A stretch of DNA of 64,000 nt from Marsupella aquatica (taxonomy: Eukaryota > Plantae > Marchantiophyta), in the NCBI GenBank assembly GCA_973895155.1, contig OZ316891.1, forward strand, positions 26,163,899 through 26,227,898, in the 5' to 3' direction. The notes beneath the pieces were generated by a model, which was not told where the DNA came from, did no database searches, and saw only the letters and a program-made list of their open reading frames with translations. A program made the position numbers and the translations under genes. Of this stretch, positions 567-37,000 are shown one piece after another. Each line of letters opens with the position of its first letter. Positions within the stretch are counted from its first letter, which is position 1.

Positions 567-871
567 TGTGACGGGGTCCCCGTCTCAAAAGGTCACCATT
601 AGGTGTTATTGGCAAGATGCATGTAAATAAATAAGCCAATATACACAATAGTTTTTCAAAAAAAAATTAAGTTAATCATCCCGGTGTGTGTTCATGTTGC
701 TTTGGAGGGCCGGGGCTATTTGAACCCGGGAGGAACTATTTTTTTTAATTGACCCTTTTCTCCCTTGGGTCTTGTCGTTGTGGGAGAAGAAAATTAGGCA
801 TCTTAAGGGGATACCACCCATTAATATTTGGAGACCCCGGCAGTTTTTCTTGGCCCCGGTATAATATGGCA

Positions 872-1075
872 GAGGAGCCCGCGAGCCATGGGGCGCGAGA
901 TGGAGGGTCGCCCTGCGAGTAGGCGGAGCCCCGAAAGGGTTTGCCGGGGCGTAAGTGAGGGGCAGCCGGGGAGGAGGAGCCCGCGAGCCATGGGGCGCGA
1001 GACGGAGGGTCGCCCCGCGAGTAGGCGGAGCCCCGAAAGGGTCTGCCGGGGCGTAAGTGAGGGGCAACCGGGGAG
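872..1075. repeat. GC-rich tandem duplication, 102-bp unit x2
   Basis: GAGGAGCCCGCGAGCCATGGGGCGCGAGA...GGGCGTAAGTGAGGGGCA starts at 872 and again at 974, near-identical. Confidence 0.9.
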
Positions 1076-1430
1076 GGAAAATTAGCAAAGGAGCCACGGG
1101 GTTTCTTTATTTTTTCCTTCCTATTTTCTCACTTCCTCTCTTTTGCAAGACCAACTCATTGCCAAAAGCAAAAACTCGGGCTCTCTCTCAACTCTTGCCG
1201 AAAGCTCTCTCCACATTTTGCAATTATTCTGAAAGCCCTTTCTCATGGTCAATTGTTGGGGCTTGTTGGCATGATTCTTCCGAGCATTAGCGGCAGCAGC
1301 ACGGAGTGGCTTCTGAGGGAATTGAGGGTAATTGATTGATCGGGATACGGGGGCCATTTCGGGCCAGGGGATTGACATTGCTACGGGTGACGGGATTTGG
1401 TGATTGAGGATTTGATTTCTGGATGCATGG

Positions 1431-3293
1431 ATGCTAGATCAACCGGAGTTTAGTGCGGCACGCGTTCGGAGATACAAGGCTGCTTACCGTGACTACATTG
1501 AGACATTGATTGCAAGAGAGAGAGAAGAGAGAAAAGCTACGATGAGTATTGGGCTGGCGGCAAGTTCCACACCAGTGAGTAGGAGCGTTTTTCGTCGAAT
1601 TTATCCCAAAACCTCCACCAAGGTGATGGAGGATTGTAGGAATATTTTTCAAGCCACCGGGCTCACGGAGTTCATGAAGGTGGAGATTACAATCCCTTCG
1701 GGGAAGAGTTGGAACATTGAGGCCGGGATGGAGTTACGTACGGAAGGAATCTACTTTTAATGTCTCTAGCGGGTAGTGCCCCATGTGGAGTTAGCTAAGC
1801 TTCTATTCCTGGAGAACCAGCAATTCTCATTCACACCTCGGAACATAAGGGGAGAGCTCACGTTGACAATGGTGGCCGGTTGGGTGATTAATCCCACCTC
1901 CACTACTTCCATTCCTCTTTCCGCCGTAAAGGATGCTGAGCACAAGGGATTTCTGGCCAAGGTTCATGAACGGGTCCTTGGTAACGTGCAATCTGGGGTG
2001 GTGAATGGAGAGCATTTCGTGGTAGCTATGGACATCAAGAACTATCCAGCCCATGTGTACGGATGGTGGTACTATGGGTTGAAGAAGCTATTGGACGCCA
2101 ATCCCGAGAGTGTGAAACCAGGTGGGGCTGTACATTTGATGGGGTCATTTTTGCTAGCCAGAGCAGAAGGGTGGATTGTTTCCCCGGGACAGGAAGACAC
2201 TGGATCATCCCTTACCACGGAAATCAGGAGTATTGCAACTACCATCTTGGGAAAACTAACAGAGGGATCATCGTCGGCAGTTGGGGATGATAATAGAGAG
2301 AAAGAAAACCAGGATGAGGACTCCACAATGGAGTGGCTTGAATCACTTGTGGGAAATATGGAGGAGCCCCTGGTCTACGACATTTCTGATGTCTACCTGG
2401 CGGAGTTACGGGATTTCTGGGAGGGAGTCCATGAGGGACTCAAGCTAGTCCACGCATTGAGAGATTCTCTCAAGCAGGCCACCGCCAGAGTAGAGACTTT
2501 GGAGCAGAGTGCCCTGTCTATGAAGGAGGTGATCAAGGCCAAGGAGGAGGCCATTCATGAGAAGGTTAAACTTCTCCAAGCAGCTCACGTAGAGATCTCC
2601 AACTTGAAGGGAGCCTTGTCCACCAAGGCCAAGGAAGCGGAAGAGGTTGGAGTATTGAAACAGGCATTGGCCAAAGAGAAGCAGAATTCTGGAGAAGTGG
2701 TGGAGTTAAGAGCCCAGGTGGGAACACTACGGGGTCAAATGGTGATCTTCGAGACAAGAGCTAAGAGGCGTGAGGCCTTGAGTCTGGGGAAACGGAAGAG
2801 CCCCTGCACACCTAGCTCCACACTTTCCCCGGATTTGGTCTCCAGGGCCATTGAGATGGTGGTGAAGGAAGTCAGTGGGAAGTATGGACCCCTGTTGGAT
2901 GCAGCCAAGAAGAGTCAAGAGAAGAGCAAGAGCTTAGAGAAGAAGCTCAGGGGGGTACGTAAATCGTTACGAGAAGCTCAGGTCAACACGGGGACCTCGG
3001 GGATGCCACCCCGATCTGTCACCCCTGGGACTCCCATGGCCACCGGGCAGGTCTTACCATTGGAGTTGCGGTCCGGTGAAGAGGCGGCCCTATGGAAGGA
3101 CACCATTGGTGAGGGGTACATTAAGGCGTGGCAGGCCTTGGCCAATTTGAGGAAGCAGGGGAGCACTAGCACAAAGACTACCCCGGTGAAGAAGAAGAGG
3201 AGTGAAGTGGCACTCACTCCAGTGGAGAGTGATGAGGAGGCCCACTCACGGGGCTCAAGCCAGGGCACCGTGAGTGAAGAGGAGGAGGATTAG
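1431..3293 (+). pseudogene. ~620-codon ORF of unknown function with a long C-terminal coiled coil and a basic/acidic tail; two in-frame stops
   Basis: ORFs 1431-1760 and 1776-3293 are in the same frame, separated by TAA TGT CTC TAG, which is compatible with CAA->TAA and CAG->TAG changes. Heptad-rich E/K/L/A region (LKQATARVETLEQ...LRAQVGTLRGQM) and an NLS-like PVKKKRS. Confidence 0.65.
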
Positions 3294-4405
3294 AGTGGTC
3301 GTACGGACGTGGTTGTACAGACCCTGGACTTTCCAACTTTCTTGTGAGGGGACACTCATGGGCTTGTTGGAAAGAGCTTGCGGAGCTGATTCCAACAAGG
3401 GGCGGCGCTCCTCAAACGGAGCCAGGATGAGCAGGTTATGGCCCGACGAAGTTGTGTTTACGGGATATAAAAACGGCCATAACTTGGTCGTCCGATGTCC
3501 GTTTTGAGAGCGGTTGAGTGATTCGTGATCAGGAGGAGGAGGGCTATCCAGGGGTGAACTCAGAAGTGCGAGTGGAAGGGCACCTAGTTTCAGCCATTGT
3601 GGGGTTCCTTGCAATTTCACGGTTCACGGAGTAATGTTGGGGCGCCGTCGAAGGCACCATCGGCCCCATTGTTAGTTTAGGGTTTAGAGTTTTAGAAGCA
3701 TGTGTGTGCCGCATGCTTTTAGTTTAGGGGTTTCTTAGTGAAGGGTTTAGCGGCGCCGCTAGGGTAAGCCGCCATCGTTGTGGCCCCATGAGGGGTACTT
3801 TGGTGTGTTTTTTGGTATTTAGGGGGAGAGCCCCATAATAGTGAGGGGGGGACTCAGTCTAGTGTTTGCTTAGGGAAGATAGCTCATAGCCAGAAGGGGG
3901 AATCAAGCCAGAGTAGTGAGGTAGATGTGTAGCACTTGCCCCAGTGAGGCAGTAGTTGGGCAGACGGCAGGAGGCCGGGTTGTCCTTGCAATGTGTTACG
4001 ACATTTTGCCAAAAGATATGGATTTGGTTTGATTCCTCAAGTTTTGGTGTGGTGTTACCTTTTCTGGTTCACGATTGTGTTCTTTCCCCAAGAAACGTCT
4101 AAGGAATCCTTGCACGGTTTGGTCAACCATGTGAGTAGGGAGGGGTGGTGACAACACTCCACCGACGACCAGTAGGAATGTGTGTGTGTGGCGTAGTCCA
4201 TGGGACTTGATCAAAAGCAAAGCGGCTAGTCGGTAGACTTGATCAAAAATTACATTTTCGGGAGCAGAAATAAACATACTCATCCTACATGCAATAGAAT
4301 CCTAATAGCGTCCCTCCACGTTCCAATCATACGATAACAAACGATTTTAGTAGGAGTAAATACGTATTTGTCGTGTAAATCGTTTGATAAGCAGGTGACA
4401 AAGAC

Positions 4406-7400
4406 TTGGATGCATTTCACAATGGGCTGGACAACGAAGAGGATACGACTGCAGATGCAAGTGTGCCCCCTGTCGAAGAGCCTCTTGATGAGTTTGAGAT
4501 AGGGCAGGAAACCCCTGGGCATGATGGGATGTTTGGCTCTCCCCTGCAAATACAGGAAGGCAGGAAGTCTTTGTACCCCGGTAGCAAATGTTCTAAACTG
4601 GGATTTGTCATCATGTTTATGAACATTTGCGGCAACCACAATGTCCTCAACGTTTGGTTTCTGAGTTGTTGGCATTCTTGCGAACAACTGTGCTACCAGA
4701 TGGTAATATTTTGCCCAAGAACATGTACGAGGCAAAAAGATGCATATCTAATCTTGGATTGAACTATGATTCCATCCATGCCTGTCCCGATGGGCATGTT
4801 CTTTTCAAAAAGGAGTATGCAGAATCGTTGTCATGCCCTAAGTGTGGGAAGCACAGGTATCGGAACTCAAGAAAGTCTATGGTCCCCGCCAAGGTGCTTC
4901 ATCATTTCCCACTCATTCCCAAACTTCAGCAGATGTTCAGAAGCCGTGCAATCTCGGAGATGATGACTTGGGCAATTGACAAGAAAAGTGATGATGGGCT
5001 ACAACGACATGCTGCAGATTCAAGGCAGTGGAAACTCATAGATGAGATGTATCCCGAATTTGCTGCTGAGCCGAGGAATGTCAGACTTGGGCTGTCATTG
5101 GATGGGGTAAACCCATTTGGAGACAAGAACAACAAATTTTTGTGTTGGCCTGTAACTATTTTGAATTATAACCTTCCTACTTGGATGACTACCAAGTGAT
5201 TTTTTGTTCTGATGGTCCTATTGATACTAGGGCCAGACAGTGTTGTATCTGCCAACATAGATGTGTTTCTGGCTCCCCTAGTGGAGGAATTGAGAAAGAT
5301 TTGGGAGGAAGGAGTCCTCACATATGATGTCCTACAGAGGCTTGGGAGGTTAAACCCATTCATCCTTAGAGCCATCGTCATTCTGACTATAGCTGACTAC
5401 CCAGCCCATGGGATGATATCAGGCCAAACAACAAAAGGATATTGTGCTTGTACTATCTGTGGGCGCAATGTCACCAGTGAGTACTCCAGAGCCTTGCAAA
5501 AAATGATATACATGGGCCATCATCATTTTTTGAAGGCAGATCACCCTTACAAAGAAAGACAGGCACTGATTGCACACTTTGGCAATGAGATTGAGCAACG
5601 TGGACCCCCGGCACGAGTGACCAAAGAGGAGATCAGGCAGTGGGGAGCACTGAGGGATGACTATATCAAACGAGGGGGCAGGGAAGATGGAGTGAGTGAT
5701 CCAATAAAGCGATGTGGTGTAAAAAGACTAAGCATATTGGACTTGGAGCTCCAGTATTGGAGGGTAAGCCTCTTGGAGTTGATGCTAATTGGGATACTTG
5801 TTTTGATTCAGAGCATGTGCATTCATTTTGAAGAGAGAGACTAAACTTGAGGCATTTGCTGACGCTTTTGCATTGCAACGGTGCAGGAGTTTGAGCCAAG
5901 CAAACATAACATTGATGTTATGCACATTGAGAAGAATATTTGTGAGAGTCTACTCAGATTCTTGTGTGGAGAGAAAGACACTAGTTCAGTGAGATTGGAT
6001 TTGAACAAAGGGGAATGAAACCCCATCTTTGGTTGAGGCCACATGCCCACAGAGCTGATGTGCTCTTGAAGTACCAAGCGCCCTATGTTCTGACAGACAC
6101 AGAGTGGCAACTATTTGTGCAGAGGTTGAGTTCTTTGAAGGTTCCTTCAAACTATGGCAGTGCTTTCAAGAAGCATATCATGACTAGAAAGCTTGGTAGT
6201 ATGAAAAGCCATGACTACCATATGTTGATGCAACAGGTGTTGCCTTTATGTCTGAGGGGCTTGTTGCAGAAGCCTGTTCGTAATGTGATCATGCGACTCA
6301 GTGATGTGTTTTGTCGTATTTGTGTGAAGGTTTGGGATGAAACACACTTCCCACAACTGACAGAAGATGTCGCTCAGGTGCTGTGTGACCTGGAGATTTA
6401 TTTTCCTCCCGCATTTTTTGATGTCATGACCCACCTACTTGTCCATGTTGTGGAATAGCTACACCAATTTGGGCCTGTGAGTGCTCGTTGGTTGTACCCT
6501 TTGGAACGGTACATGAAGCTACTCAAAGGTCACGTGAGAACATATTACAAACCTGAAGCAAGCCTGGCTAAAGGTTACATCAAGGATGAGACTCTGGGAT
6601 TTCTGACCGAATACATAGCACAATATGAGCATGTGAAGACCAGGGTGTGGAATTCTGATGAGGAGGAAGGGGTGATAGGTGAAGTACTGGAAGGAGCTGC
6701 AACCACAAAGAACCTGACCACATCTATGAGAGACTTGGCACATGACTTTGTATTGCACAACACTGTGGTGATGGAACCCTGGATACAGTGAGTGCATCCA
6801 TGGGGAATCACTCGTTGGATTATTAGAACGGGGTGCGAACAAATGAAGGTTCTTTTTAATCTTGTTGGTGTAATAATTATAATCAAAAATTTGTACTAAA
6901 GGCATTTAAAAATCCAATTTTGGTAAAAATATTAGTTTTTATATTCAGCAAGGTATTTAAAAATTTGTCAAAGCCATATAATCAAGGGTACAAGGGTATT
7001 TTTAATTGAATTTATTTTTTAATATATTTTTTCAAATTTCATTGGTTTGTTCTCATGTGTTTTAGGGGTTTTACTCCAAGTGATTCCCCAGGGGAGTGCA
7101 TACATGTGCTATAATCCAGTTCATGAGCTTAAATGTTGTGTGCGTGTGATTTTCTCCTTCAGCCTGTTCATATTTACCCAAGCTAATGCTGTGTGGTTGT
7201 TTGTTCAGGGAGTATGAGTCATTGAAGGCGGCCCATCCCACTGCAGGAACAACTTTTCCAGGTTTCATGGAGTGGATTAGAGTGGCAATTAGAGAGCATC
7301 ACGAGACCCACCCAGACATGGATGCAGACATTTACCTACTGTCTAATGCCCCTAGCCTAAAAGTGAAAACTTACAAACGGATGAGAGCATATGGGAATCA

Positions 7401-8093: not shown

Positions 8094-11000
8094 GGTGACC
8101 ATAGATGACATGTTTTTGTGGTCCAGTAGGATGGAACAGAGTGACACAGAGATGTGTGAGTATGAAAGGAAAGCTATGGAACAACGAGCATACGTGAAAG
8201 CCAAAATTGCAGAACTGGATCTGGAAAAGGATGTGGCTGAATTGTAAGGACGATTCTCAACTACACCACTCCGCTGAGTTTGTGTGACATGAATAGTTCA
8301 ATGTGGCACTAAAATTGTGACTGTATGCTCATATTGGAACGTCACAGAGCCACAGCATTTTCAAAGAAACAAAAGGAGTACGCAAGAAGGGTGACCAACA
8401 CTATCTCTGGGCCTGTGCGTCGGAGTGACAGGTTGAGCAAGAAGGTCGTACCTACAATGGCAGAATGTGAAGATGACATTGATGCTGCACAGGTGGGTAC
8501 AGACACTAGACAAGAAGATGCAGATGATGAGTACTTTCCAGAGGAAATGGATGAGGATGGGGGTTATGAAGATGAATACATTGCAGAGCAACCCCAAAAG
8601 AAACATGTAAGTAGTTTTCCCAACAAGGTTTTGAGTTAAAAACTCTTGTTTAGAGGTTTCATATGTTCAGTACTACACATATGTACCTTGCTTAGTTCCT
8701 GACATTGTAGTTGGTGATGTGATGCAGCGTCCTGCCAGTTTTGTTTTGCCTTCAAAGCCTGTGCATGCACCATACCAGTAGGGGGGCTGACCTCTGATCA
8801 AGGTTGGCGAGGTGGTAGTAGTGGTAGATCCCAAGCTGGTGCCCAATACTATGGCAGGGGGCAAGCTCCCGGTTATGCCCATGGTAGAGGCAGAGCAGGT
8901 CCAAACCCACAGTCTCATGGGTATGGACATCCACCTCAACCATGGGGATGTGAGTATATATCTATATGCCAGTTCTTTGTGAAGGCATGGCACTCCTGAA
9001 TTTCAGACTGCATATCAATTTTTGACATTGTTTGGGATGTATTGGATTTAGACAACATGAAATTCTGTCCACCTGCCATTGCATGCAGATTCTGCCCAAC
9101 CTGATTGGGCAAATGCTGGTAATGATCAGTTCCAATGTCCACAAGGACAGACATGGGTTGAACCAGGTTGGGAGGATGGTGGTGGGTCGTGGAATGAACA
9201 AGGTTGGGAAGGTGGTGAAGGTAATTGGCAGGGATATCAAAATACAGTACCTACAAACGCTGGAAGAGGGGCAGGTAATGTCTGATATTGTCAGCAATGG
9301 AAGAACTCATTATACCTGGAGTCCATTCACGTGGGGGGGATTCTACACATGTATAATGAACGAAAATGTATGTGTGCAGGTTGGACAGTGGAACCATCAA
9401 CTCAAGTATTCACTAATGCCCCTATGCAGATGCAGCACAGAAGGGGGCCAGGTATGTCGGTGAATGTTCACTTGTTTTCCTACAGTTTGTACTTAGTTTT
9501 CAGTATATATGTTTGCACACACATACCTAGAAAGTGACACCATCCGGCCCCTGTACTAGGCTGGACAGGTGGTCCAGGGTCGCAACAATTCCAAAGTGCA
9601 GTCCCTGCACAGGCATCTACAGACAGAGCTACAGGTATGTATGTTTGAAGAATTTTTCTTGAAGTGAAGCATTGAATGTTGTCGTCATCCATTCTGCTGT
9701 ATGTAGTTCTCAAGCATGAATGGCATTGTATTTTCCCAAGTGGCTTCAGAACCCCAGGTAAGGTGAATGAAGGGGTGGCCAATACAATGCCCAATACTAC
9801 CGAGAGCAGTGCACGAGGGGAGGTGACAAGAAAGGGAACGTAAAGTTGAATGAGAGACAATGGGTGGATGCTGAGTGTCCTCGCAAGAACCGATGGCATG
9901 CTGATTTGAAAGCTGAAGTATTGTGTTGGTTAGATGTGAGTGTTATTAATTTTAAAAAACAGCATCCAAAAGATTGGAAGACTGTATGTGAAAATGTTGC
10001 TGCCAAATGGAATTATGTGGGCAGTGATGATGGCGTGGACATAGGTTGCCTAGAGAGTACAGCAGGTAAAATCATCAAGCAAGAGAGGTGGAGAATGCAT
10101 AAGGCTTGGAAGGAAGGTGGGAAGAAGCCAGATATGCCTCCACCAGCCAGTTGTGATGATAAAGTGTGGGCAAGGTTAGTAGCTTATTTTGTAACAGATG
10201 CTTCAAAAAAGAAGAGTTCACAGATGACCGAGGCCAGGTTGAGTGTTCAGAACCCTAATCTGACAGGAAGGACCGGCACTGCACCGACAGCAAAACGTTT
10301 GGTAAGAATCAATGGCCTAGGTATGTAATTTATGCTACACTATGTATTGTTCACTTTGTTTTTTAGTGTACGTGCCCTGAATAATAATGATAACTTGTGT
10401 TTGCCATGCATGTGCAGAAAACCCAATTGGGGCAAAGCCCTTCAAAAGAAGAGTTGAGGGCTGAAATTGTGAACACCCGGGCTCAAGAGGGTGCATCTGA
10501 ATCCTCCAAGCATGTAAGTTATATGAGTTCTGATTGGTAATTGAATGACTTGCGTTAAATTTCAGGTGTACACTGTATATAACATTGATTGTGCATATAT
10601 TGCCCAACATTTCATATGGAGTGATCGAACCTATACCCCTGTGTCATGTAGGGAGGTGGATCTTCACTTACAGAGATAAGTGGTCGTTTGAAGGCTGTCG
10701 AAACATGTCTTCCAGAGATCAATGAACGTTTGAATTCATTGACTGACTTGTTCCATGTGAACTTCAAGACATTAATGGAAGCTGTTGTGTCGGTGAGAGA
10801 TAAAATTGATTCCAATTTTGCAGGAGTTCCACCATCACCACTTGAGGTGGCAAAGTCGATGCACTCTTCTGGCATGCCAACGACATGTAGGCTTGAAGGT
10901 AAGGCCTTTACAACTGTGTGGGATATGATTAGTAAATGTATAGTTTGAATTGACATAGTTTGTTGAATGTGTTATTTTTAGTAACATATATTGTGGTTGT

Positions 11001-11526
11001 TGTGTCCATAGAGAATAAGATAGGTGCTGCAGAGAAGAAGTATGAGAACCTGGCAAATACTCGCTGTAATTTAGAGGCAACAAAGTTGCAGTCTGTACAA
11101 GCAACTTGTTTGACAGAGGGCAGTCAACCATGTTTGGATGAGGATGACATTGGCAAGGGAGTGGATGATATCAATGTTGGGGCAAATGAGGATATCAGTA
11201 AGCATGACAATGATATCATTGAGCCAGATTCATGCTATGTAGATCTTGACTCCATTGCAGAGATAAATGATTTGCAGAATGTATCATTCTCAATGACAGG
11301 TGTGCCTCTTGTTGAGATAAATCCAACCAAAGAGTTAGTTGGTATGACACTCCCAGGTGCTGAACCTGCTGCTGTGACAGTCCTAATAGAGGAACCTACT
11401 GAGCCTAGCTTCACTACTGTGAAGAGAGGAAGCATGCGCACACGAAGCAAGTCTGCTGGTGGGAGCAGAGCCACGTCAAAGGTTTCATACAAACCTCCAA
11501 GAACGGTGCTGGCAGAAAGATCTAAG
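8094..11526 (+). pseudogene. Element A second gene (TnpA/PTTA-like), many short exons, cut by element B
   Basis: Run of GT-AG bounded exons. The exon around 9846-10301 reads RWRMHKAWK...PPPASCDDKVWARLVAYF...KKSSQMTEAR...TGRTG, which resembles the Transposase_24/PTTA pattern. The reading frame ...AERSK runs into the element B TIR. Exon boundaries are approximate. Confidence 0.7.
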
Positions 11527-12022
11527 CACTACAACATATTTGACACTTTTGCGAAGGTATTTTTGTCGACGCTCTTGTATTTCCGATGGGCGGCGCTTTG
11601 CATATTTTGCGAATCAACCCGCATCGCAATTTGCGATTCTATCCCTATCGCAAATATAATAGCTGAAGCGCATTATATCGCTAATAAATTGCGAAGTAAG
11701 TGGTTTTGCAATTTTTACCGAAATGCGTCGAATGGAAAGGCACCTTCCGAAGACGGAAAAATCGCTCGCCGACTCCGAAACTAACTCATGTAAATATTTG
11801 CGAAGAATATTGGATTGAAAATGTTTTGCGATAGTAGTTGGTTGACAAGTTTAAGAATGTTGGAGGATGGAAGATTTGCGAAACGCTGAAAATATGAAAT
11901 TTGTGATTGATTTTGCATCACAAGTTTGCGAAGAGTGTAGTATGGAAATATTGAGAAACGAGAAGCTTCATATAAATTGCGAGTCCGGTGAGAGTTTGTG
12001 AGCTTCACAAATTGTTCGCAAA
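11527..12022. repeat. Element B left TIR and subterminal TTGCGAA/TTCGCAA motif array
   Basis: Many TTGCGA(A)/(T)TCGCAA copies in both orientations directly inside CACTACAACA. Confidence 0.88.
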
Positions 12023-12487
12023 CTAAAAATTAAGGTTATTGTGAGGTGAGACAATGAAGAGGGTGGATGGTCCAATATATGGATGGGGCAGGAGGGAAGA
12101 GGAAGGGAGGATGGAGGGAGGTACAATGAAGGATGGAAAAGGGAGGGAGTACAATGGAAGAGGAAGGAGGGAGGAGAAAGAGGAAGGGAGGAGGAGGGAC
12201 AGACGTACCACGGAGGAGGGAAACACGAGGGTGAGAATGAAAATTATGGAATAAGTAGGAAATAAAGTTATATTGAGCAACAGAGGTTAGATAGAAAGTT
12301 GCATGTAAAATTCACAAGTGATCACAATAAAACAATACAATACATATGTCATGAGTATGACTCATTCAAAAGTGAATGGCAAATAAAAATATAGACAATC
12401 CTTTTTTTTATATCACCAAACATGAATAAATCAAATATAACATGAACAAATGTCTAGGCTGGACCCAAGTGCATATAAATATGTCCC

Positions 12488-15400
12488 TCACACTTGGTCC
12501 TCATCGGCCTCAAGGTCATCTAGGTCTGATACAATAACATCTGGCTTCTCAGAAACAATGGAACGAGAACGTGGCACATAGGTGATGACAATTGACCACT
12601 CGGTGTCTAAGGGGTATGGAATGTAGAAACATTGCTCCAAGTGTGATGGGAAAGCAAATGGTTCTGACGTTTGCCAATGAGATGCTTGAACACTAGTGGC
12701 ACTTGTCTTCAACCGTGTAAACCCACTCTCATCTTGAAGTACAGTGCAATTTTGACCAACAAGGTTCACTTTGAACCACTTGCACTTGAAGACATATTCC
12801 TCAAACTTTGAATGGTTGTCATATGATACCACCAAGATCTCCTCTATCTTCCCATAGTGTGGCACAACATCTCTAACAATGTTCCTGTCATGGCGGCTGC
12901 TTCTGGAGTCTTGAGAAAATTCCCCTTGAACTCCACAATCAAAAGTACGACCCCTCTTCTCATCAAGGGAAGAAACCCTAAAATTAACAAAACCCACAAA
13001 TTTTTATTACACTATAAAAGATACCATTAATGTAATAATCATCAAAATATGACACCCATCCCTAAATAGCCAAAACCCACATGGCCTATGGCATAAATAT
13101 AGAAGCCAACATTACAGTTATGGATGTCATTAATGATAATAGAAAGTTTTTAAACAATAGAAATAACTAATCAAAATAAGGTCTACATGAATTAATAGAG
13201 GAAGAAAGGTTAGGTACTAGTGGACCTGAAGTGTCTCCCTTGTGTCCACATAGCCGTCTTGGATGTCACCACTCTCAAAGGGCCATGAACAATGGTCCGA
13301 ACGTCATCTGTGATGGTAGGAAAGTGGGACACATCTCCTCCTTGTGTCACCATGTCATCCAACTCAAGCAACTTTGGCTTCATATACTCATGCATCTTAG
13401 GAAAAATTCTTGCTCTTTGACTTGTTCTCTTGGCATTCTCATAAAACTCTCTCCATTTCTCCATGATATTACTATTACTCAACATAAATGTTGTCAACTG
13501 TGACCACTCTGTTGATGTCAACATACGTGTTTTTGTGGCACCTGTTAAACGGTCCTCCTCCTCTTCTCTTTCCTCCATCCAAGTACGTGGACAAGTAGGA
13601 TCAATGGTGGCCAAGATGTTACTACAATAAAACATACTCTCTGCTGCCAAGTATCCTGTAGCTATGCTTCCCTCCACCCGTGCACGGTTACGTACATAAG
13701 CCTTCAACACCGCCATGTAACGCTCAAGCCAATACATCCATCTACAATGCACTGGACCTGCAATGGCAACCTCCCGCACAAGATGCACAAGTAAATGAAC
13801 CTGACAATCAAAGAAGGAAGGAGGAAGGGCTTTCTCCAACTTGCATACCACCTCAGCTGCCAATACCTCCATCCCAGGGATCTCTTCTACATATATCTCC
13901 TTTGAGCATATCCATCTCAACAAACGACCCAATGACCAGATGGCATCTTGCACTTCTTCACTCCCTATACCTATAATTGCCACTGGCAATATATGCTGCA
14001 ATAGGCGATGATAGTCATGTGTCTTCAGATATCGTGGCCACTTGTGATTGTCCTCCATCCCAAAAGCTTTTCGAAGGTTGGCACCATAGCCTGTAGGAAA
14101 CCGCATCTCTCCTATACGGTTCCGAAATTCACGTCTTTGGCCAACACTCAACACCCAAGGAGCAGAAGGACGATTCTCCACACCTGTGATAGGATCAATT
14201 GTCACCCAAACATCTGGATGCATTTCCATCTCCTCGCATGCCTCCCTAAAATTAGTGTCCTTCTCCCCATAAAAATGCTTTATCAAAGCCTTCCCCACAT
14301 TTCCCTCTATGTGCATGGGGTCTAAAAGATGGCGGATCTTCAACTCAGACCAATAGGGCAAAGTGGCTAGTATACTCCACCTGGTCAAACCTGTCCTATC
14401 AAAGGTGAAGGAATCATTTGGGTCTGCCACCCTATTAGCTAGTGACTTCCAATGTGCAAAACTTGTTGCATCAGGAATTTCACGCTCATCACCAAATGGC
14501 ATGTCAAAGGAGGAGAATAGAAGTGGGTCAAACCTCATCTCATGCCCCATGGGAAGAAACTTTGTTTGCCCAATATAAACAATCTTTCTAATCCATGAAC
14601 GATATGTGGCCATGTCCTCTAAGCTTGGGCCACAAGTAGAGCAAGCTTTGTACCCCTGAGTTTGCAATCCAGAGACAAAACCAAACCCTGCTTACATAGA
14701 AGAAATCAAACCATGCAAACTTTATGTTAGGGTTGTCACATGAGAAACATCAATAGGAACTACACATTATTGAAGGGTTGCAAATGGCATGGAAGTCATC
14801 TTACCAGGATAGTCATGCATTGTCCAACAAATGATCCCTCTCAATTGAAAGACACGTGGAAAACCTCCTGTAATTTTCCTGCCATCATATGCCCACACTC
14901 CATTCCATAATTTTTGAAGTTCTCCAACCAATAGTGCCAAGTAAGTGTCAAAGTTCTTCACCTTTTTTGGACCTGGGATAATCAAAGACAATAAAAGGAA
15001 CCCCTTCTTCATGGATAGCCATGGTGGGAGGTTATAATTCATGACAACCACAGGCCAAACTGATGTAGGTTGCCCCTTTCCTCCAAGTGAATGAGGGCTA
15101 ATTCCATCAGATGCCAATCCTAGCCTCACATGGCGAGGATCATGTGCAAAGTCTGGCCATGTTGCCTCAATATGTTTGTGAGCAGGGGAGTCAACTGGCA
15201 ACCGCATGACACCAGACTCTGATCGATGAGTCTTATGCCATACCATCAACTCTGCCAAGTCAGAACACCGATACATGTGCAACAACCGAGGAATGATGGG
15301 AAACCAACGAACAGCCTTCCTTGGCACCTTCTTTGTTAGCATGTTGGGGTCATAGCGAGGCTCATCACATGTTGTACATTGTGTCATGTTTGCATTGGCC

Positions 15401-17306
15401 CCATGAAATAACATGCAATCATTCACACATGCATGAACAATATGATATTCCATGCCAATAGATGAGAGAACACTCTTTGCCTCCTTCCAAGTTGCTGGCA
15501 ACACATTCTCAGTGGGCAACATAAGGTCATGGCAAAGTGCAAACATATCAGATAACAAGGCATTGCTTGCCTTGTGTTTGGCCTGTAGGTTCATCAACCC
15601 CAAGATGGCTGAAAGACGACTCAAACGAGCACCCTCATAGATAGGTGTTCGGGCATGTTCCTCTGCTTCTTCCCATTGGCGTTGTCCCTCAGGGGTATGC
15701 CTTGGGCGTGGATCATTGGGGGGCACCTGCCCTTCATTGGGAAGGTCATCACCAAGGTTGTCGGCACCAAACCAATCAACCATAAAGTCATCCATGGCTC
15801 TATCCTGGTCATCAGTTACTTGTTCATCCGTCCGAGGTACCTCTTCATCAGGGTTACTGCTTCCACTAGCACTTGATGAGGAGTGTGACTCTGATCCATG
15901 TCCTTCTTCTGGCATACCCATTTCTCGATATGTTGCTCTCAATCTCCGTGGTAACATATTTGGAGAGGGTCGCACATTCTAAAAACAAAGCAAACAATTG
16001 AAAGTTATATTGCAAAGAGAACACACACAAAAATGGGCTAGGGGTGTGCAAAAATGAAATAATATTGGTTGTGGTGCAAATACAAAATGTGGCCAAAGGC
16101 CATATGTAGTGCCCTTTGATATGCAACATACCACCTATGACCCTTAACTTAACCCTAATCCCACTCATAGTGAGTAAATAACTCATCCCCTGAGTTAATG
16201 GTCCTTGTTGCTACAACTAGGCAATGGTCATGATGATATGTCTGGCCATAAGGTGCTGGCGGAGGACCCTCAATGAAAACCCACTCACAATTTTGCCTAC
16301 GCTTAGGGCGAGTCCCCACGGTACTGTTTATGAAACCAGCAATATTCCCAGTCCGTATGGGGTCCCCATCTATGACACGCTGCTCACTATACCTTCTAGT
16401 GTTTCCATCAAAGTATCCATGTCCAATGCATAAGTCTTCCACTCAGGGTGTTGTGCAAGGATCATGTTCCAATGTCTTCTCTTGTAGATGGGTCCACCAT
16501 AAGGAAACAAAGTAGGCCCCTCTCGGCCGCGTCCACCTCTACCACTCTCGGCGTCCACAATGATGTCCTCACAGGCAAAAACTCCATAGCCATGTCTATC
16601 CCCAAGTGTGGAAGGTTTGATAACCCAACGTCTACCCCAAACCTCTACCTCCACACCGTAGGAAAGCTGTTGTGGCAAACCAAGAGTCTCAGGATCCCAG
16701 TCCTTGATGATAGGGACACATCTGCCAGTGAACTCACAATCACCCCACCGACCCGTAACCACTGCCTTGTACAAATCAGTATCCCCTCGGGCCCGCCTCT
16801 TGGAACGCTTTCTCCCTCTTGGGACAATAGCCTCAACCCCAACTTCCCTAGGACTGGTCGGCCTTGCCGCTAGACCCAAGGCTTTTGAGAATGCATTGCC
16901 TATAGCATCTAGAACACCTTGTGATGGGACATAGGGTGCTTGTGCCGCAGGTCTAGGCCTATTGGATACCTATTCCACCGAAACCAAAACAAACAAAAGT
17001 AGGTGTGAAATTGCAAACCTTCAACCATTGAGTAATGGGAATAGGGTAGGAAAACTAAGGCATAACACTTACCATATGAGATGAAGAAGCCCCTGCCGTA
17101 TGACGTCCACAACGCCCATATCTCTCAATATGTTGGGCACATATGTAAGATTTTTGGGAAACCTGACCCACACATCTGGAACATTCACAAAGTTGACGGG
17201 GTGGACCGCGAGGAGGAGGTGCGGTCGTGTGATGTTGAGGTGGAGGTGGTGTATCTTCATCAGAGGAGGACGAGTCTGTGGTGGAGATTTCAGAAGATGA
17301 AGACAT
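12488..17306 (-). CDS. Element B Tnp2/TnpD transposase, 4 exons, predicted 1119 aa, no disabling lesion seen
   Basis: Predicted exons 17306-17073 (CECSRC...HIERYG domain; donor GTAAGT), 15978-14805, 14687-13226 and 12977-12488 total 3360 nt, with GT-AG introns and consistent phases. Junction peptides: SHM/NVRP, DYPG/FGFVSG, HFR/VSSLD. Motifs VHACVNDC, RHVRLGLASDG, LDPMHIEGN, LKTHDYH, WMYWLERY, EPFAFPSH. Confidence 0.9.
16155..16969 (-). CDS. SET-domain (lysine methyltransferase-like) alternative exon in intron 1 of the element B transposase; one 1-nt frameshift at ~16410-16412
   Basis: All four SET motifs occur in order: IKPSTLGDRHGYGVFACEDI, LFPYGG, IDGDPIRTGNIAGFINS...N, VVATRTINSGDELFTHY. 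The acceptor AATAG|GTATCC at 16969 is phase 0 and in frame with ORF 16370-16879. Adding one T to ACTTTGAT joins ORFs 16370-16879 and 16155-16442 (ALDMDT-FDGNTRRY). Confidence 0.85.
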
Positions 17307-17311
17307 ATCCC

Positions 17312-18605
17312 CTGTAACAAGATATAATTAAAATGGGCATGTTATGACCAAAACATACCACAAAATGATATAAATCAAAGTTCCCAAATAATGATGACAA
17401 GAAACCCAAACCAAAATGACCATAGCAATAAAAAAGGTACCTTTATGAGACCCGGGCTCAGCAGTGCCAATAGCTCTTGTGGCTCTAAGATAATTAATGA
17501 ACCCAATCTGAAAGTATGAGGGAAAAGCTGCAACCATTCCATGTATATGTAAGCACAATAATCTGGACCAGACAAGAACAAAAAACCCTACATACATGTC
17601 CCCTTTATACATAGTGGCAACAGTAAGTGTTAAGTACATGAAAGGAACACTTTAGCCGATCATGCAATGTTTACCTTTCAGATGCCCGGGCTCTCACAAT
17701 GCATATGCATTAGTATCAAATCATCAAAAAGTGCCGCACCCTGCAAGCTATCATATATTCCCCTCCTTTGTTAGCAAAACCCATGCCAATCCCCTTTTGA
17801 TTCATAAACCCAATGAACCTCTCTTAAACCCAAAAGGCTGCAATATAAATCTCATGAAACCTTGCTTTGTCTTATCCAAACCTTCAACCCCAAACCGCAT
17901 CCTACCTATTAAACCTAAATCTGACTTACACACAAACCCAAACCTTTCTTCAACCCTAGAGACCTTTCTATTTAAAAACCCCAAACCCTAAAACCCTAAA
18001 CCCAAACCTTACTTATTTCTTGTAAACCAAATCCCACACCTTTATTATTTCTTCTAAACTAATGTAAACCCAAACCTTAGCCTAAACCAACACCATACAT
18101 AACCCATTAACCTGAAATCTGCCTAACCCTTCAAACCCGCCTTCAACTATTATCTAACACCCAAAACATGGCCAAAAAGCATTCCAAATATGAGTATAGA
18201 GGGGTCCACTTCACCTTTGAAAAAAACCCTTTCAAATGAAACCAACATTCCCCCAGGACGAGTTGCCAATGTCTTGCGAAGCCGCTTCCTTCGCAAATAC
18301 CATCACAAATTAGAATTGAAGTTTGCGAAGCTACTGCTTTCGCAAGACCTTCAGAAAAACAGAGCCCGAGAGCATTTTTGCGAGAGAGCGAAGGTGTTGC
18401 GAAGCCTTTCACGTCGCAATGGTTTCGCAAAATTGAGAAACTATATGCGAAACAAGAAGAATCGCAACTTGCGAAACGGGTTGCTTCGCAAGTCTTTCCC
18501 GCTTGTACTTTTGCACTCGGCCGCGGCGTACTCAGCGGCATTTGACAAATTTCAAGCGTAGGGAGGGAGAAGGGAGCTCGCGCGCGCTCGGGGGGTGGCT
18601 TGGCT
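17312..18605. promoter_or_regulatory. Intergenic (bidirectional promoter / 5' UTR) region of element B with AAACCCTA-like tracts and a TTCGCAA array
   Basis: Lies between two divergent ATGs (17306 minus, 18606 plus). AAACCC(TA) repeats at ~17800-18140; TTGCGAA/TTCGCAA cluster at ~18270-18495; splice acceptor at 17312, 5 nt before the transposase ATG. Confidence 0.6.
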
Positions 18606-20570
18606 ATGGATTCCAGTGGAGCAAATGGAGGTGATAGGGCAGGGGTGAGTGAGAGTGGCAATGGGTATGAAGGCAATGGGGAGCAGGAGAGGAATCGATG
18701 GACCAATTTGATGGCTGAGCACCTCAATGCAGCACAGTTGAGCCACTTAGATTTGACTACACCAGCAGGGATTGCTTCTTTGAGTGCAATCCTTGGGCAA
18801 GCCTTGCAAACGGGAGTAGATGCAGGGAACATTGCAAGGGAGGAGGAGCAAAGGAGTGCAGCTCAACAGAAGGCAAGAGAGAAGAAGCGTAAGAAGGAGG
18901 AGAGGGCCAAGGCAGGAGTAGTCTCACCTGTTGCCCTAGAAAAGAAGAGGAGGAGAGAGGAACGAGATGAGATAAGAGCACAACGGGAGGAGCAGCGAAA
19001 GAAGGAGGAAGAGAGGAAGAAGCTGCCTATGATTGCCTTGATCGAAGGCATTCCTACTGAACTGGCCTACACCGGGGCAAAGAGCACTATCAGGCTTATG
19101 GTGCGCTCCAATTTTGCACGAGGAGTTGAGTGGGGGAAACTCAGCAAGGCAGACCAGAAGAAAGTAATGAGTCAAATCAAAGATTCATTTCGAAATGGAG
19201 CAGAGATTGATGAACAGTGGCTTGCAGATAGAATTTCCAATTCAATGTCTCAAGCACGGTACCATGATAGGAAGAAGGTAAGGGCCTACCTGGCAAACTT
19301 GGAGGAGTACAGAAACGTGAGGAGGCCACTACAATTCACTGAGGACGTGTGGAATGCCTTTTACAAAGTGGAGGTGCAGATGAGAGCTGCCAGGAACCTT
19401 CTCTTCTGGAAGGAGATGGAAGCCAAGGCACAGAAGGCCGGGAAGTCCGACCGAGAGCTCAAGGCAATGGCTGAGAAAGTGTCTCACATGCAGCACATTG
19501 TGGATGAAGTGGGTGCACCACCCCAAAAATTCATCCTTGCAGCTGAGCGAGTCAGCAAACGGCCCAAGACCACGCACAAGATGGGCCAAGGTGGACTTCC
19601 CGGCCTCAAAGCACACTTTGTGAGTGGGCCCTCTCCTCTCCTCCCCTGCTTCTGTTTCCTTGCTTTCAATTGCTATCCAAACCTGCAATGCCCCCCCTGC
19701 ATACCTCTTGTTTCTTTCTTACGGCCTGCCTTGTACTTTAGGTCACCCTGACACATTGCGTGCCTTAGAGATTTCTCGGAATTTTTTAAAAACAGAGTTT
19801 GCGAAGCTTTTGCGATGCGGGTTGCTTCGCAAATGTTTCGCAAACTCTATCATGGCATTTTTTAAAGTTGTAAATGCGAAGCTATTGCGAAATAACTCGC
19901 TTCGCAAACTACTTCGCAAACAGCCAATTTATTTGAATTTGCGAAGTGGGGAGTTTCGCAAGTGTGTATTATGTTTTAAAAAAACCGCTAAGGGTTATTG
20001 AGCCCAGTTTTGTGTTAGGGGGCACCCTAGTAGCACCTCCATGCATTTTTCTTGGGTTTATAGCATATTAACCTCGATCTATTTTGGTTTTGGAATGTTT
20101 GGTTGTGGTAGTATAAGAGGTACCGCAGGAAGATAACAGCAAAAGAGATGGAGATAGGAGCTGCGCATGGAGCCAAACATCTCTTTGACTTGGTTGACGC
20201 AGAGTTGGCGACTGTAAGTGCATGTATCCCCTTCAGTTTTTCCCACCCAATCCACTTATCTTTTCATTCCGTAAACCTAAACCAATTTGGCGTTGTGCTG
20301 TGCAAACAGGATAATGAGGATGCCAGTGATACCAGCAGCACCGATGAGAACAATGAGGGGACCACGACAAAGGGGCCCAAGGTAGGAGGGAGTAGTGGAT
20401 CTGGACCAGTAGGAGGAGTTTCCCAGCAGGAGGGGGAGGAAGAGGACGAGGACGAGGAGGAACCAGATGTGGAGGAGCAGCCAGCACCACCTCCTGTGCC
20501 ACGTCCGGATCGTCGCAAGAGGGACAAGGGGAAGAGGCCGGCGACAAGGAGTAGGAGGACCCCATTCTAG
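18606..20570 (+). CDS. Element B TnpA/PTTA-like protein, 3 exons, apparently intact
   Basis: Predicted exons 18606-19619 (donor GTGAGT), 20112-20213 (donor GTAAGT) and 20310-20570, all phase 0. Charged coiled coil, then W-containing helices (EWGKLSKADQKKV, PLQFTEDVWNAF) and THKMGQGG, as in CACTA second ORFs. Acidic/basic tail. Confidence 0.78.
19797..19962. repeat. Intronic TTGCGAA/TTCGCAA motif array in the element B TnpA-like gene
   Basis: About ten copies of the terminal motif packed into intron 1. Confidence 0.85.
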
Positions 20571-20822
20571 AGCTTGGTGGTGTAGTGCCTATGGGATGCC
20601 CATTTACTTAGTGTAGTATATAGTTTTGATATGGGTAGTCTTATAGGGACCTAGCTTGTCATATGACACCCATCTAGGGTTTAGGGTTTAGGAAACCCTA
20701 ATTTTTGTGTACCTATCAATTTTCTATAAAGCAATTTTGATTCAGACCTCATTCTCCGTGTTGGACGACAAGACCCCAACCATAATTCAAAACTCTAAAT
20801 CTAAACCCTAGCCTCAAGACAT

Positions 20823-21253
20823 CTTGCGAAACCTATGCGAACAACCCAATTCGCATATTTACCATATTGAAGGTATCGCAAACATTATGCAAACCACATA
20901 CGTTCACAAAAATGCGAAGCCATGTTCATGGCATAACTACCATTAACTTAATATCGCAAACCGATTACCAAACGTCTGGGATTGCAAATATTTAACTGCT
21001 TGATTATTATCGCAAGCCTCTCGCGACGCCCACGGAGTCGCTTAAATGTGAGTCCTTTGCGATTCTATTAGTGTCGCAAGTTGCGAAGGCGTTGCGAAGG
21101 TCTTGCGAAAGACCGGATGCGAACCTTTGGGCTTCGTAGTTTGCGATTCTATTGCGATGCGCGATACTTCGCAAAGGCGAGTTTTGTTTTTTGATTTCCT
21201 TTGTTGTTTGCGATGCTTTCAAGTTCGCAAAAGGTGTGGGTAGTGTTGTAGTG
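20823..21253. repeat. Element B right subterminal TTGCGAA/TTCGCAA array and TIR
   Basis: Dense motif copies ending in TGTTGTAGTG. Confidence 0.88.
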
Positions 21254-21538
21254 AAGGTGGAAGTAGGGAAAGCACCTAATGCTGAGGGACAAAGTGGCTT
21301 GTTAGCTGTTGGTGAGAGTGGAACACGAGTAGGATTTGGCAGAGTGCAGGTTGGTTCCACATCGTTCCATGGCAAGAGGATTCCCCCAGGTTATTCAGTA
21401 GTGTTAGTCACATTACTAGTGAAACCTAAAGCTGTCCTTCCCATTCCAAACACAAATGATGATCCTCCTCAAAAGACACTTGGAGATGCTACAGGTTCTT
21501 TGGTATTATGGCCAAGCAAGTTCATAGAGGATCCATAA
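21254..21538 (+). pseudogene. C-terminal end of the element A TnpA-like gene (Tnp1/En/Spm C-terminal-like domain)
   Basis: VGFGRVQVGSTSFHGKRIPPGYSVVLV...AVLPIP...TLGDATGSLVLWP matches the typical C-terminal domain of CACTA second ORFs. In frame with the exon interrupted at 11526. Confidence 0.8.
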
Positions 21539-34038: not shown

Positions 34039-37000
34039 TCACCTCCTTATCAGCATCTCGACAACCTTGCTCTTGAAGGTGTCCCAAGACTGCTCTCCGA
34101 GAAGCATAACATCTCCTCCCTTGTCCTTGTAAACAATATCCAGGCCCTGGGTGTACTCTTGTTGAGTAAATTGTAGAAGCTCCCGCTTGAGCCCTTCCGT
34201 CGATGTAAATTTGGAAAGGTCGGTGGAGAGGCACTTCTCCGGCGACCATTGCATGTAGCATTTGACATGAGGTCCAGCCGAGTTCACCCCGTCAGCGCGT
34301 GGTGCTGCATCCGAGGACGACATGGTGGTTGTGTTGGCCGCCGGAGATACGCGCTCTCCTGAGCCTTGAACCGGAGAGCAATGCCTCTTCGGAGACTTTT
34401 GCTCCTGGTCCTCTGAAGAAGACGTACTCCTGCTACCCTGTGTACTACTCGTCAAATGCGTGGAATCCGTGGCGAAAGGAAGGTGTGCAATTCGTGTGAG
34501 ATCAGAATGTTGTGCAAGGCTGAGCGAGGTGTCTGGCGCGCCATCACTCCCGTACACATCTGCCACACCTGAGATTTTCAAGATATCTAGGTTTCCCACC
34601 TTCCGCTTCCTACTATCTCCTCCCATTTGACCTGATATGCTCGACAAAACACTTCTCGGATCTCTTCCTTGGCTCAAGTCGTGCTCGGGCCCGGCTTCGA
34701 GAGAAGTGGTAGAAGCTGCACTGCTCGATATTCCATTTGTGGCAAGCCGAAGAGATGGTGTCAAGGGTGGGAATTGTTCCCCAGTCCTTGCTGTCGTTAG
34801 GCCTAGGAAGGAAGTTGCCACTTGATCGCCTGGCTTTGTAATCTGGATGGGCTTCATTGATCCAGGGAAGGATACTGGTCTGGCACCTGCAGACACAGGT
34901 GAAGAAGCTACGAGCTGCGTAATGCCATTATTGCGACCTTCTTCTGTTGTGCAATACCGACTCGCAAACGTCTGCAGACGCTGTGCATAAGCTTGCTCCG
35001 CAGGAACTGGCGATGGCCATAGCTGATGACTCAGACTCGAGGCAACAGCCGTGGATTCCAGTTGAGCACTTTTCTTCTCCAGGTCCACGCCGAACAACCT
35101 TGTGCCGCTCGCTGCAATGGCATTCGCAGCTCCTGCTACAGCTGTAGCTTCATTTCGCTCGATGGACTTCGCTGCTGCAGCAGTCTTGGCGCCAGCATAG
35201 ACTAACGCTTTATTGCTGGAAACTCCCTCACTTCGCCTCCCAAGCTCCAATAGCGAGAAAAAGTCGGACTCCCCGCTTCTGGGATGAGCGGATCTAATAA
35301 GCAGAGACTGCGAAGATCCTACAGGGGGGAAGGGTATGTTTTCCATGTGTCGGTTTGGGTGCTGCGGGAGGTTGGGGAAACTGGATAGCTGCAAGTTCTG
35401 CGGAAGCGTATGTCCTCCGTAAATGGACTGAAATTGATGCCACGGTGCACCTGAAGAGGTCAGGGGCCCGTGACCTGGCATACCAAACTGAGACGGTAGC
35501 CGAGGCACCCAGGGTCCTCTGTAGTTGTTCCTCGAATCAGCAGAAGGGCCTGGGAGCATTTGAGCAACCTGATTGCTGATTCTTCTCCGAAAGTCGATGT
35601 AGAGCTCTTTTCCAGGTCCTCGTTCGAAGGAAACGGTATCACCTGCGTCAAGCTTTTTCTCCTTGACGAAACGACTCCAGCCTTTGGTGAAGACATAGCT
35701 TTGAGAGCTGTTCCAGTAAGAATACCGAAACCTCCAGTGCTTCCCGGATATATCTTCAAAGGACAGTGTCTGACAGGGAGCATTCAAAGCCAAGTCTAAG
35801 GGAAAACATCTCTCGGCATGCTGCTTGGGAATCACTAGCCTATTGAGTTTGCCTACATCACTTGGAGTGACAGCCTTTTCGAACAAATGCTCTCGTTGCA
35901 GAGTGGGTCTGGGGGGTATTGCAGGCGTAGTACTGTCGTTTTCTTGGGCAGGAGGAACTGCGACCATCCCAGTAGAGGTTTGCTCGGATGTGGAGCGCTT
36001 GCTGGCAAGCCTCTTGCTTTGATCCAGCTCCTCCTCGTAAGTGTGTCTGCGAAGCATTTCAACAATTTGTTCTTTGGAATACTGCCGGAGGAACACTGCT
36101 TCAGGATCGGTTTCCTGCACGGGACGGAAATTTGTCATGGCGTCTCTGCCCCGAAATTTCATTGCCGCTCTATCGTAAGCTCGAGCAGCATCCTCCTCTC
36201 TGTTGAACGTACCCAGCCATACTCTCTGATGTTTCTCGTAAATCTGAGCTCCCCACCTGCCGTTGGGCTGTGGAACCACTCCCCGGTACTGGGAAGAAGG
36301 CAGCTTGTTTGCTCCTTCCTTCAGAACTCGGCTGTCTTCACCTCCGTCCGAGCTCTCATCCGGGGCACCGTGAGTTGTTTGTGCATCGCCCTGAGACATC
36401 TGATCGGAGCTACTCCGTTGGGACTCACCTTGACCATTCCCAGCTTCCCCTGGACCTTCAAGTCTTCGCAGGGAGTTCGTAACAACCGTGTTAGGACCCG
36501 GCCATGACGAGCTAAGCCATGAGGGAGTCCGTGCTGCCTGCTCAGTCCGACCCTGGACCTCCTGGACCTCAGCAGTGGAGATCTCCATGTTCGCTCTCTC
36601 CCTGGATGCGATGTCTGCACTAGAGCACGGAGAGCTGGAGCTTCCATCTGAGACAGCTGCACGTTCATCTCTGCGTCTAACATCGGAAGTCACCTCTCGC
36701 GTCTCTTGCGATCTAACGAATGCGGTATTGTTATCCTGGATGGAAGTTGTTTCTGGACGGCCGTCGAGGGTCAAACGTTCGAGCTTGATCCCTGAACCAC
36801 GATCCGCCCATTCTACTTTGATGGGCCGCCCAATCGGTGTCTGATCATCAGGCTCTATGATGTCGAGCCTTGCTGTTTTTGCCTCTACGGTCAACAATTC
36901 CTTATCCTGAGAATTGTTGCCTGCAGCCCACGATGGTGCGGAATTCTCAGGGCTGTGCGGAGGACTTAATCTGTTCCTCTCGGGAATGGAAGGGGCTAAC

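Follow-up and report, generated by a model that had tools for sequence, protein, structure and literature searches.

The window analysed here, 64,000 nucleotides of contig OZ316891.1 from the liverwort Marsupella aquatica, contains a CACTA element of 9,727 bp (11527..21253, read from the sequence). Its terminal inverted repeats are 10 bp long and perfect (CACTACAACA, at 11527 and 21253), and the same terminal start, CACTACAAC, was found in four loci of Sphagnum type. The 3-bp target site duplication AAG lies at 11524-11526 and 21254-21256, and a contig of run X2 that joins 11525 to 21257 represents the empty site. The element thus has the CACTA...TAGTG termini with short inverted repeats and the 3-bp duplication on both flanks that characterize CACTA/EnSpm elements, as well as the subterminal repeats of this class in the form of TTGCGA/TCGCAA clusters at both ends (11549-12016 and 20824-21225). 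The same repeats form a cluster between two divergent genes (18274..18486) and recur in the first intron of the second gene (19799-19956), with 47 copies inside the 9,727-bp element versus 13 in the remaining 54,273 bp of the window. The empty site and the intact transposase frame point to a recent movement of the element.

The first of the two divergent genes is on the - strand. Coding exon 1 (17073..17306, 234 nt, 78 codons) has a Ser/Pro-rich start followed by a C-x-C-x2-C-x12-H-x4-G domain (LCECSRC...HIERYG) and ends in ATG|GTAAGT, a phase-0 donor. Two acceptors, both also in phase 0, lie downstream at 16969 and 15978. The nearer one closes a predicted intron of 103 nt (16970..17072) and opens the SET exon (16155..16969, - strand, 815 nt), which comprises a variable Pro/Arg-rich linker, a conserved pre-SET segment, a SET domain and its own stop codon (TAG, 16157-16155), giving a SET isoform of 349 aa with one X where the frame breaks. 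The farther one, beyond a spacer of 176 nt (15979..16154, - strand), opens transposase exon 2 (14805..15978), which starts with a leader N-V-R-P-S, has its first Met at 15957 and encodes the start of Tnp2 (PF02992, E 6e-38). Exon 3 (13226..14687) encodes the end of Tnp2 and DUF4218, and exon 4 (12488..12977) DUF4216 and the stop, all on the - strand. When exons 17306-17073, 15978-14805, 14687-13226 and 12977-12488 are joined, an open transposase model of 1119 aa results. An earlier note on this DNA had proposed the exon 1 boundaries and donor, both acceptors, the SET stop, the two product lengths and the single frameshift, and all of these were recovered in the sequence and the exon models.

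The transposase is of the TnpD type, with Pfam scores for PF02992, DUF4218 and DUF4216 above the cut-off. It contains the motifs ASDG, HDYP, CSTC, HLLVH and MYWLER, which we take to carry the catalytic residues. With them, the model has the DDE, C(2)C and H(3-4)H motifs of such transposases as defined in the accessible text of PMC12730594. In Sphagnum-type elements, transposase exon 3 is split by an additional intron of ~150 nt (2627-2774 in locus L001), which is absent from the window element (about 14090).

Upstream of exon 1, the segment 17307..17693 (- strand) probably represents non-coding leader exons of the transposase/SET gene. A motif repeated within it ends in AAAG|GTA at 17693 and at 17459 and is also present in loci L003 and L004; an acceptor lies 5 nt ahead of the exon 1 start codon, with equal spacing in L034; and diverged contigs of run X1 align to this segment only at the leader-exon spots. 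The second gene (18606..20570, + strand) has predicted exons at 18606-19619, about 20112-20213 and 20310-20570 and gives an open model of about 450-460 aa. Relatives with 42-62% identity occupy the same position in nine loci. We found no Pfam match below E 1, and hence none to Transposase_24 or related families, and the best Atlas score was 0.77. We regard this conserved, divergent gene as a putative TnpA-like accessory gene.

The element has inserted into an older, degenerate ordinary CACTA element (79-about 23100, + strand), one reading frame of which is split by the insertion. The outer element retains Transpos_assoc (79-546), Tnp2 (4597-5841), DUF4218, DUF4216 and Transposase_24 (9771-10325) domains, all on the + strand. 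Its transposase is interrupted at 567-4400 by a TG...CA insertion of 3,834 bp, which is flanked by a 5-bp AAGAC duplication and holds a 507-codon coiled-coil frame (1770-3293) without a clear Pfam family. We considered whether the flanking CACTA element carries a further cargo gene in the equivalent slot, and rejected this because the frame is part of an LTR-type insertion, which has a 5-bp duplication of its own. Elsewhere in the window are a 1070-codon open frame (34039-37251, - strand) whose product has AP2 and B3 domains and, at the C-terminus, a weak match of AUX/IAA type (E 0.024), i.e. a RAV-like host gene, and fragments of a chromodomain-bearing LTR retrotransposon integrase together with a zf-RVT fragment (51712-52710, + strand, and 43286-43897, - strand).

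The SET exon of the window copy is one base short of whole codons, with a one-base frameshift near 16409-16412. Contigs of all four runs have an extra base at 16409 (by depth, X1 1623/1660, X2 6114/25068, X3 16333/43437 and X5 46/253), so it is the window copy, or its assembly, that deviates. Either the frame break is specific to this copy, or a short T run was misassembled. All four runs behave as DNA, and the joints listed for them include no splice joint. The sequences flanking the SET exon are little conserved: the 103-nt intron is 0.59 identical to the Sphagnum-type intron (shuffles: mean 0.51, maximum 0.57), while the spacer does not exceed shuffles (0.52 versus a mean of 0.48 and a maximum of 0.53) and no donor in it is kept in relatives. 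Lacking a conserved donor, the SET exon fits an alternative last exon better than a cassette exon, and the spacer is probably the 3' end of the SET mRNA together with the branch and pyrimidine tract of the long intron.

The SET exon is not confined to one copy, a point on which the earlier note had made its proposal depend; it is present in many copies and in several bryophyte lineages. A search with its 5' half returned 40 proteins from 264 candidates, the named ones being from Sphagnum and Calypogeia. One cluster has 360 members, including predicted gene models of 343 aa that join exon 1 to SET. Public gene models with this junction come from Calypogeia and six Sphagnum species (S. jensenii, troendelagicum, balticum, fallax, compactum and tenellum), and the Logan protein P0122 has exon 1 and SET within one called frame. 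When 1.84 billion representatives were searched with a profile, 111 clusters (at 50% identity) were recovered, with identities down to about 25-30%; among the 20 looked up, four were from Riccia sorocarpa and two from Calypogeia fissa. No flowering-plant protein was among the named matches of this search. Transposase-exon sequence is present within the same gene model in 8 of the 111 clusters and an exon-1-like domain in 11, six of which went into the profile; most other members are single-exon calls, which cannot reveal exon 1 or a transposase exon. Some remote members, e.g. P0170 and P0173 from Calypogeia, are about 30% identical and come without evidence of a transposon context; in P0170, a Cys motif weakly resembling DUF5763 (E 0.09) stands where the exon-1 domain would be.

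A scan of metagenomes added 40 loci. Since 39 of them are 80-97% identical to a Sphagnum protein, look like one Sphagnum-type family and are not independent, and L003 represents a third family, the evidence at the DNA level spans three families. Exon 1 lies upstream of SET in 18 of the 22 loci with room for it, and Tnp2 lies downstream in 24/26. The phase-0 GT donor of exon 1 is kept in 18/18 loci. The AG of the SET acceptor is exact in 21/26 (one is in phase 6 nt upstream, three are AG>AA and one is replaced) and that of the transposase acceptor in 22/24 (one more is in phase and one is AA), and the SET stop directly follows HY[E/G]Wx in 27/27. Unlike these splice sites, the intron and the spacer barely exceed the shuffle level across loci, if at all. 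Full-span SET exons are intact in only 5/17 metagenome loci. Among viral contigs, 19 matched the search pattern and none of these was a relative of the SET family. Judged by sequence, the order exon 1 - SET - Tnp2 is a recurrent feature of a bryophyte CACTA clade of mosses and liverworts.

The earlier note had described exon 1 as a Cys/His transposase-associated domain. The Cys/His motif is there, and the exon-1 core has a dN/dS of 0.18-0.21 against relatives (four loci). Exon 1 of the window has no Pfam match at E<=1, so that the label leans on weaker and indirect matches. The exon-1 domain of the relative P0153 matches PF13963 at E 0.031. A profile of the domain aligns gap-free to the N-terminal Cys/His domain of the adjoining ordinary CACTA transposase (E 1e-5 in a two-sequence search), which itself matches PF13963 at E 4e-5. 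An hhalign comparison of exon 1 with two angiosperm domains gave a gap-free alignment at a probability of 15%.

The assignment of the downstream exon to the SET family, also made in the earlier note, held at the level of both profile and structure. The 3' half of the window's SET exon matches PF00856 at E 1.2e-5 and 26.1 bits (curated cut-off 22.4), and 58 of the family's 75 members do so at E<=0.1. For structure prediction, the intact relative P0009, which is 72% and 87% identical to the two halves of the window's exon, stands in for the broken window copy. With an alignment of 75 sequences its model reached a pLDDT of 93.5, compared to 42.5 with 18 sequences. In Foldseek, SET8, LegAS4 and MLL1 rank first (E 1e-7), and in VIA-align SET1 (Z 12.1, rmsd 2.7 over 124 residues), EZH2 (11.8), SET7/9 (11.7) and SET8 (11.5) are tied; viral SET proteins fit no better than other SET families. 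Single-sequence and shallow-profile searches of the PDB gave no SET match, and the best sequence match among solved structures is LegAS4 of Legionella (E 1.2e-6). Thus, as judged from the model of the intact relative, the domain is a SET fold. No single host SET family is structurally nearest to it and, with activating and repressive families scoring within 1 Z of each other, the fold does not single out a substrate.

We suggest, with a probability of about 0.5, that a clade of bryophyte CACTA elements carries a SET gene in intron 1 of the transposase gene, likely under a shared promoter, and that the SET isoform is likely a lysine methyltransferase acting on the element's own chromatin. In this model, transcription would start from one promoter and exon 1 would be spliced to either of the two acceptors, giving two proteins. 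Splicing to the acceptor at 16969 would generate the 349-aa protein with the Cys/His and SET domains from an mRNA that ends in, or reads through, the spacer. Splicing to the acceptor at 15978 would remove the SET exon within an intron of 1,094 nt and generate the 1119-aa transposase, so that the two products would be mutually exclusive for each transcript. The SET domain would bind SAM and methylate lysine, the common Cys/His domain would recruit the methyltransferase to the element's DNA or to the complex formed by the transposase, and a histone mark written there would preserve the element's capacity for expression. As the SET frame of the window copy is broken by one base, the protein would have to come from sister copies. 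Targeting by the Cys/His domain combined with histone writing in the element's own interest is the weakest step, and we hold it to be possible, with the odds leaning slightly against it. The full proposition, in which the clade encodes its own histone methyltransferase, self-addressed through the transposase's zinc-binding module, with the splice choice switching between chromatin writing and jumping, is accordingly more tentative still.

With the same anatomy, an active enzyme might instead restrain the element or have a target other than histones: it would write a repressive mark, or methylate the transposase, the product of the second gene or a host silencing protein, with the splice choice serving as a brake. 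The viral protein vSET writes a repressive mark on H3K27, and EZH2, SUVH6 and SET7/9 are among the structural matches of the family (Z 10-12). The predicted, mutually exclusive isoforms and the position of the SET acceptor as the nearer one also accord with a brake, and splicing as a brake on the P and Ac transposases is discussed in the part of PMC4158355 available to us. On the other hand, none of our tests favours this reading, and that deeply separated families have kept the SET exon accords with a benefit to the element, of whichever sign. We regard restraint or a non-histone target as rather unlikely.

Both a self-serving mark and a brake presuppose catalysis, for which the residues are informative. 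Using the motif names GxG, YxG and asparagine motif, and residue roles that we assume to apply to this family, we find these motifs and the final Tyr across the 75 sequences: G68 is conserved in 68/68, G92 in 69/70, Y113 in 70/75, N148 in 69/75, N160 in 73/73 and the final Tyr in 59/63. In other SET enzymes, a small residue two positions before the final Tyr permits multiple methylation, and the residue at this position is small here as well. The NHS motif of SET domains carries a canonical His, in place of which 73/75 sequences have Ser (N148-S149), and the Cys-rich post-SET region is absent from the SET proteins of the family. These two departures would be compatible with a module that is conserved without being catalytic and instead binds histone tails or acts as a decoy for host chromatin factors; several PR domains are weak or inactive, and PR domains match the model at Z 8-10.8. 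Such an inert module appears improbable, because few sequences depart from the glycines of the SAM site, the Asn or the final Tyr and because LegAS4, which was crystallised with a histone H3 peptide, also lacks the canonical His (YINFS). From the model and these residues, the SET domain of the preferred reading probably binds SAM and methylates lysine.

The sharing of exon 1, on which the proposed switch depends, competes with an arrangement of two separate genes, in which exon 1 would serve SET only and the transposase would be made from its own Met at 15957 via an internal promoter or a two-gene mRNA. The public gene models join exon 1 to SET, whereas weak searches for annotated proteins of >600 aa that join exon 1 straight to the transposase found none, and in the window and in Sphagnum-type copies an in-frame Met lies seven codons into the transposase exon. 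Yet the phase-0 acceptor is conserved and the sequence upstream of this Met is conserved in the manner of coding sequence: the seven codons keep their length and the pattern N-x-R-P-S, and the changes in them are synonymous. A Riccia gene model has NVPDIEMLPRRL at the leader position, and some other families, as read from predicted proteins, lack a Met at that spot; the conserved leader codons and the missing Met support exon sharing. In addition, a Cys/His domain of this kind opens ordinary CACTA transposases, as in P0245, P0246 and the flanking element. In all six elements scored, the exon-1 donor was the best-scoring one between exon 1 and the transposase acceptor, and with the approximate donor weights used no conserved in-phase donor followed it. 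Several gene models present a triple fusion of exon 1, SET and transposase. Their exits from SET differ while the acceptor is the same and, given that no conserved in-phase donor was found, we read these fusions as prediction artefacts. The earlier note's claim of a shared exon is thus backed by acceptor phase, leader codons, families without the Met and the Cys/His alignments, while the searches found no annotated protein with the exon 1-transposase junction. In our assessment, an anatomy in which the SET isoform and the transposase share exon 1 is very likely, and two separate genes are as improbable as an inert module.

Pairwise dN/dS values (Nei-Gojobori, window versus seven loci) indicate how the exons have evolved. 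Between families, dN/dS is 0.15-0.26 for the SET core, 0.15-0.32 for the whole SET exon and 0.13-0.20 for the transposase exons, and L003 gave 0.30 and 0.40 against two Sphagnum-type copies. Within the Sphagnum-type family, the SET values are 0.75-0.99 and one transposase exon has 0.60; this is the pattern expected of copies decaying after insertion and lends no support to selection. Neutral evolution of the SET exon, which the earlier note had named as a sign of passive capture, is therefore not borne out between families, where the sequence comparisons speak for purifying selection on the SET core in the lineages that spread. CACTA elements do carry fragments of host genes. A soybean case is cited in the accessible text of PMC4158355. 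That the SET exon is such a passively captured, functionless fragment, as the broken frame of the window copy might suggest, is largely refuted, because its core is under purifying selection between families, its fold is equidistant from host SET families, the 111 diverged clusters include no ordinary host SET gene at E 0.001 or better among 1.84 billion representatives, and the frame break is absent from most X1 copies.

The synonymous divergence between the SET exon of the window and those of Sphagnum-type elements (L001-L040) is only 0.7-1.5, and over 91 core residues a copy from the liverwort Calypogeia (P0011) is 73% identical to Sphagnum proteins (P0003, P0009), while the Riccia families are 36-44% identical. 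This low divergence hints at horizontal transfer among bryophytes. For the same element pairs, dS in the SET core (window 16155-16762) is about 0.7, below the 1.0-1.5 of the transposase exons, which may reflect extra constraint on silent sites or module exchange between families.

Maize En/Spm makes TnpA and TnpD, a DNA-binding protein and a transposase, from one alternatively spliced unit on one strand. The bryophyte element is similar in being a CACTA element for which several proteins per spliced unit are predicted; it differs in that the alternative product has an enzyme fold and that the second gene points the other way. CACTA transposase splicing is discussed in the accessible text of PMC4158355, which cites that TnpA and TnpD are both required. 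The earlier note did not recall SET as a CACTA module, but this has a published precedent: in the parts of bioRxiv 10.1101/2025.02.11.637652 available to us, Plavaka elements of red algae, which belong to the EnSpm superfamily, are described with a methylase-SET gene, PAG2, and SET is also reported in Helitrons. Compared by published description, PAG2 and the bryophyte gene share an EnSpm/CACTA-superfamily carrier, a PF00856 SET domain, long retention and a proposed modulation of chromatin. However, in Plavaka PAG1-3 SET is fused to a DNA adenine methylase, whereas the SET isoform and its relatives have no methylase domain. The bryophyte SET is a free-standing domain of land-plant elements, placed within the first intron of a Tnp2/DUF4218/DUF4216 gene, with which it likely has exon 1 in common. 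SET genes are also described in HarbingerS and MuDR families of Phytophthora (PMC12730594, accessible text). These and the SET Helitrons are likewise transposon-borne SET genes of proposed function; they differ in superfamily and host, and their available descriptions mention no shared exon.

As described in the sources available to us, VANC of Arabidopsis VANDAL elements is a possible functional analogue, i.e. an element-encoded factor acting on the element's own silencing. However, VANDAL elements belong to the MuDR superfamily and lack SET, and the function of VANC was shown by experiment while that of the bryophyte SET is only predicted. LegAS4, SET8 and viral SET proteins have the same fold, and LegAS4 shares the loss of the His in the asparagine motif. 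With only 17-29% identity, LegAS4 and the minimal SET enzymes give no sign of direct descent, and their substrate cannot be carried over. Our literature search, which had Repbase Reports outside its scope and worked from partial texts, found no land-plant SET transposon and no case of a shared exon, and supplements of the preprint may list more EnSpm cases; by term search, neither the Riccia nor the Apopellia genome paper mentions SET domain, CACTA or EnSpm in its main text. Thus, transposon-borne SET genes were already known, and what is new here is probably the nested, exon-sharing design in land plants.

In the available accounts, the transposon SET genes of oomycetes and red algae are noted without a functional test. 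The family described here occurs in mosses and liverworts, groups with transformable models, and the idea that a transposon writes its own histone marks thereby becomes testable. The shared exon would offer a concrete mechanism for both targeting and switching. The finding also bears on bryophyte genome annotation: hundreds of models labelled "SET domain-containing" in Sphagnum, Calypogeia and Riccia are likely parts of transposons and, if so, would inflate counts of host chromatin regulators.
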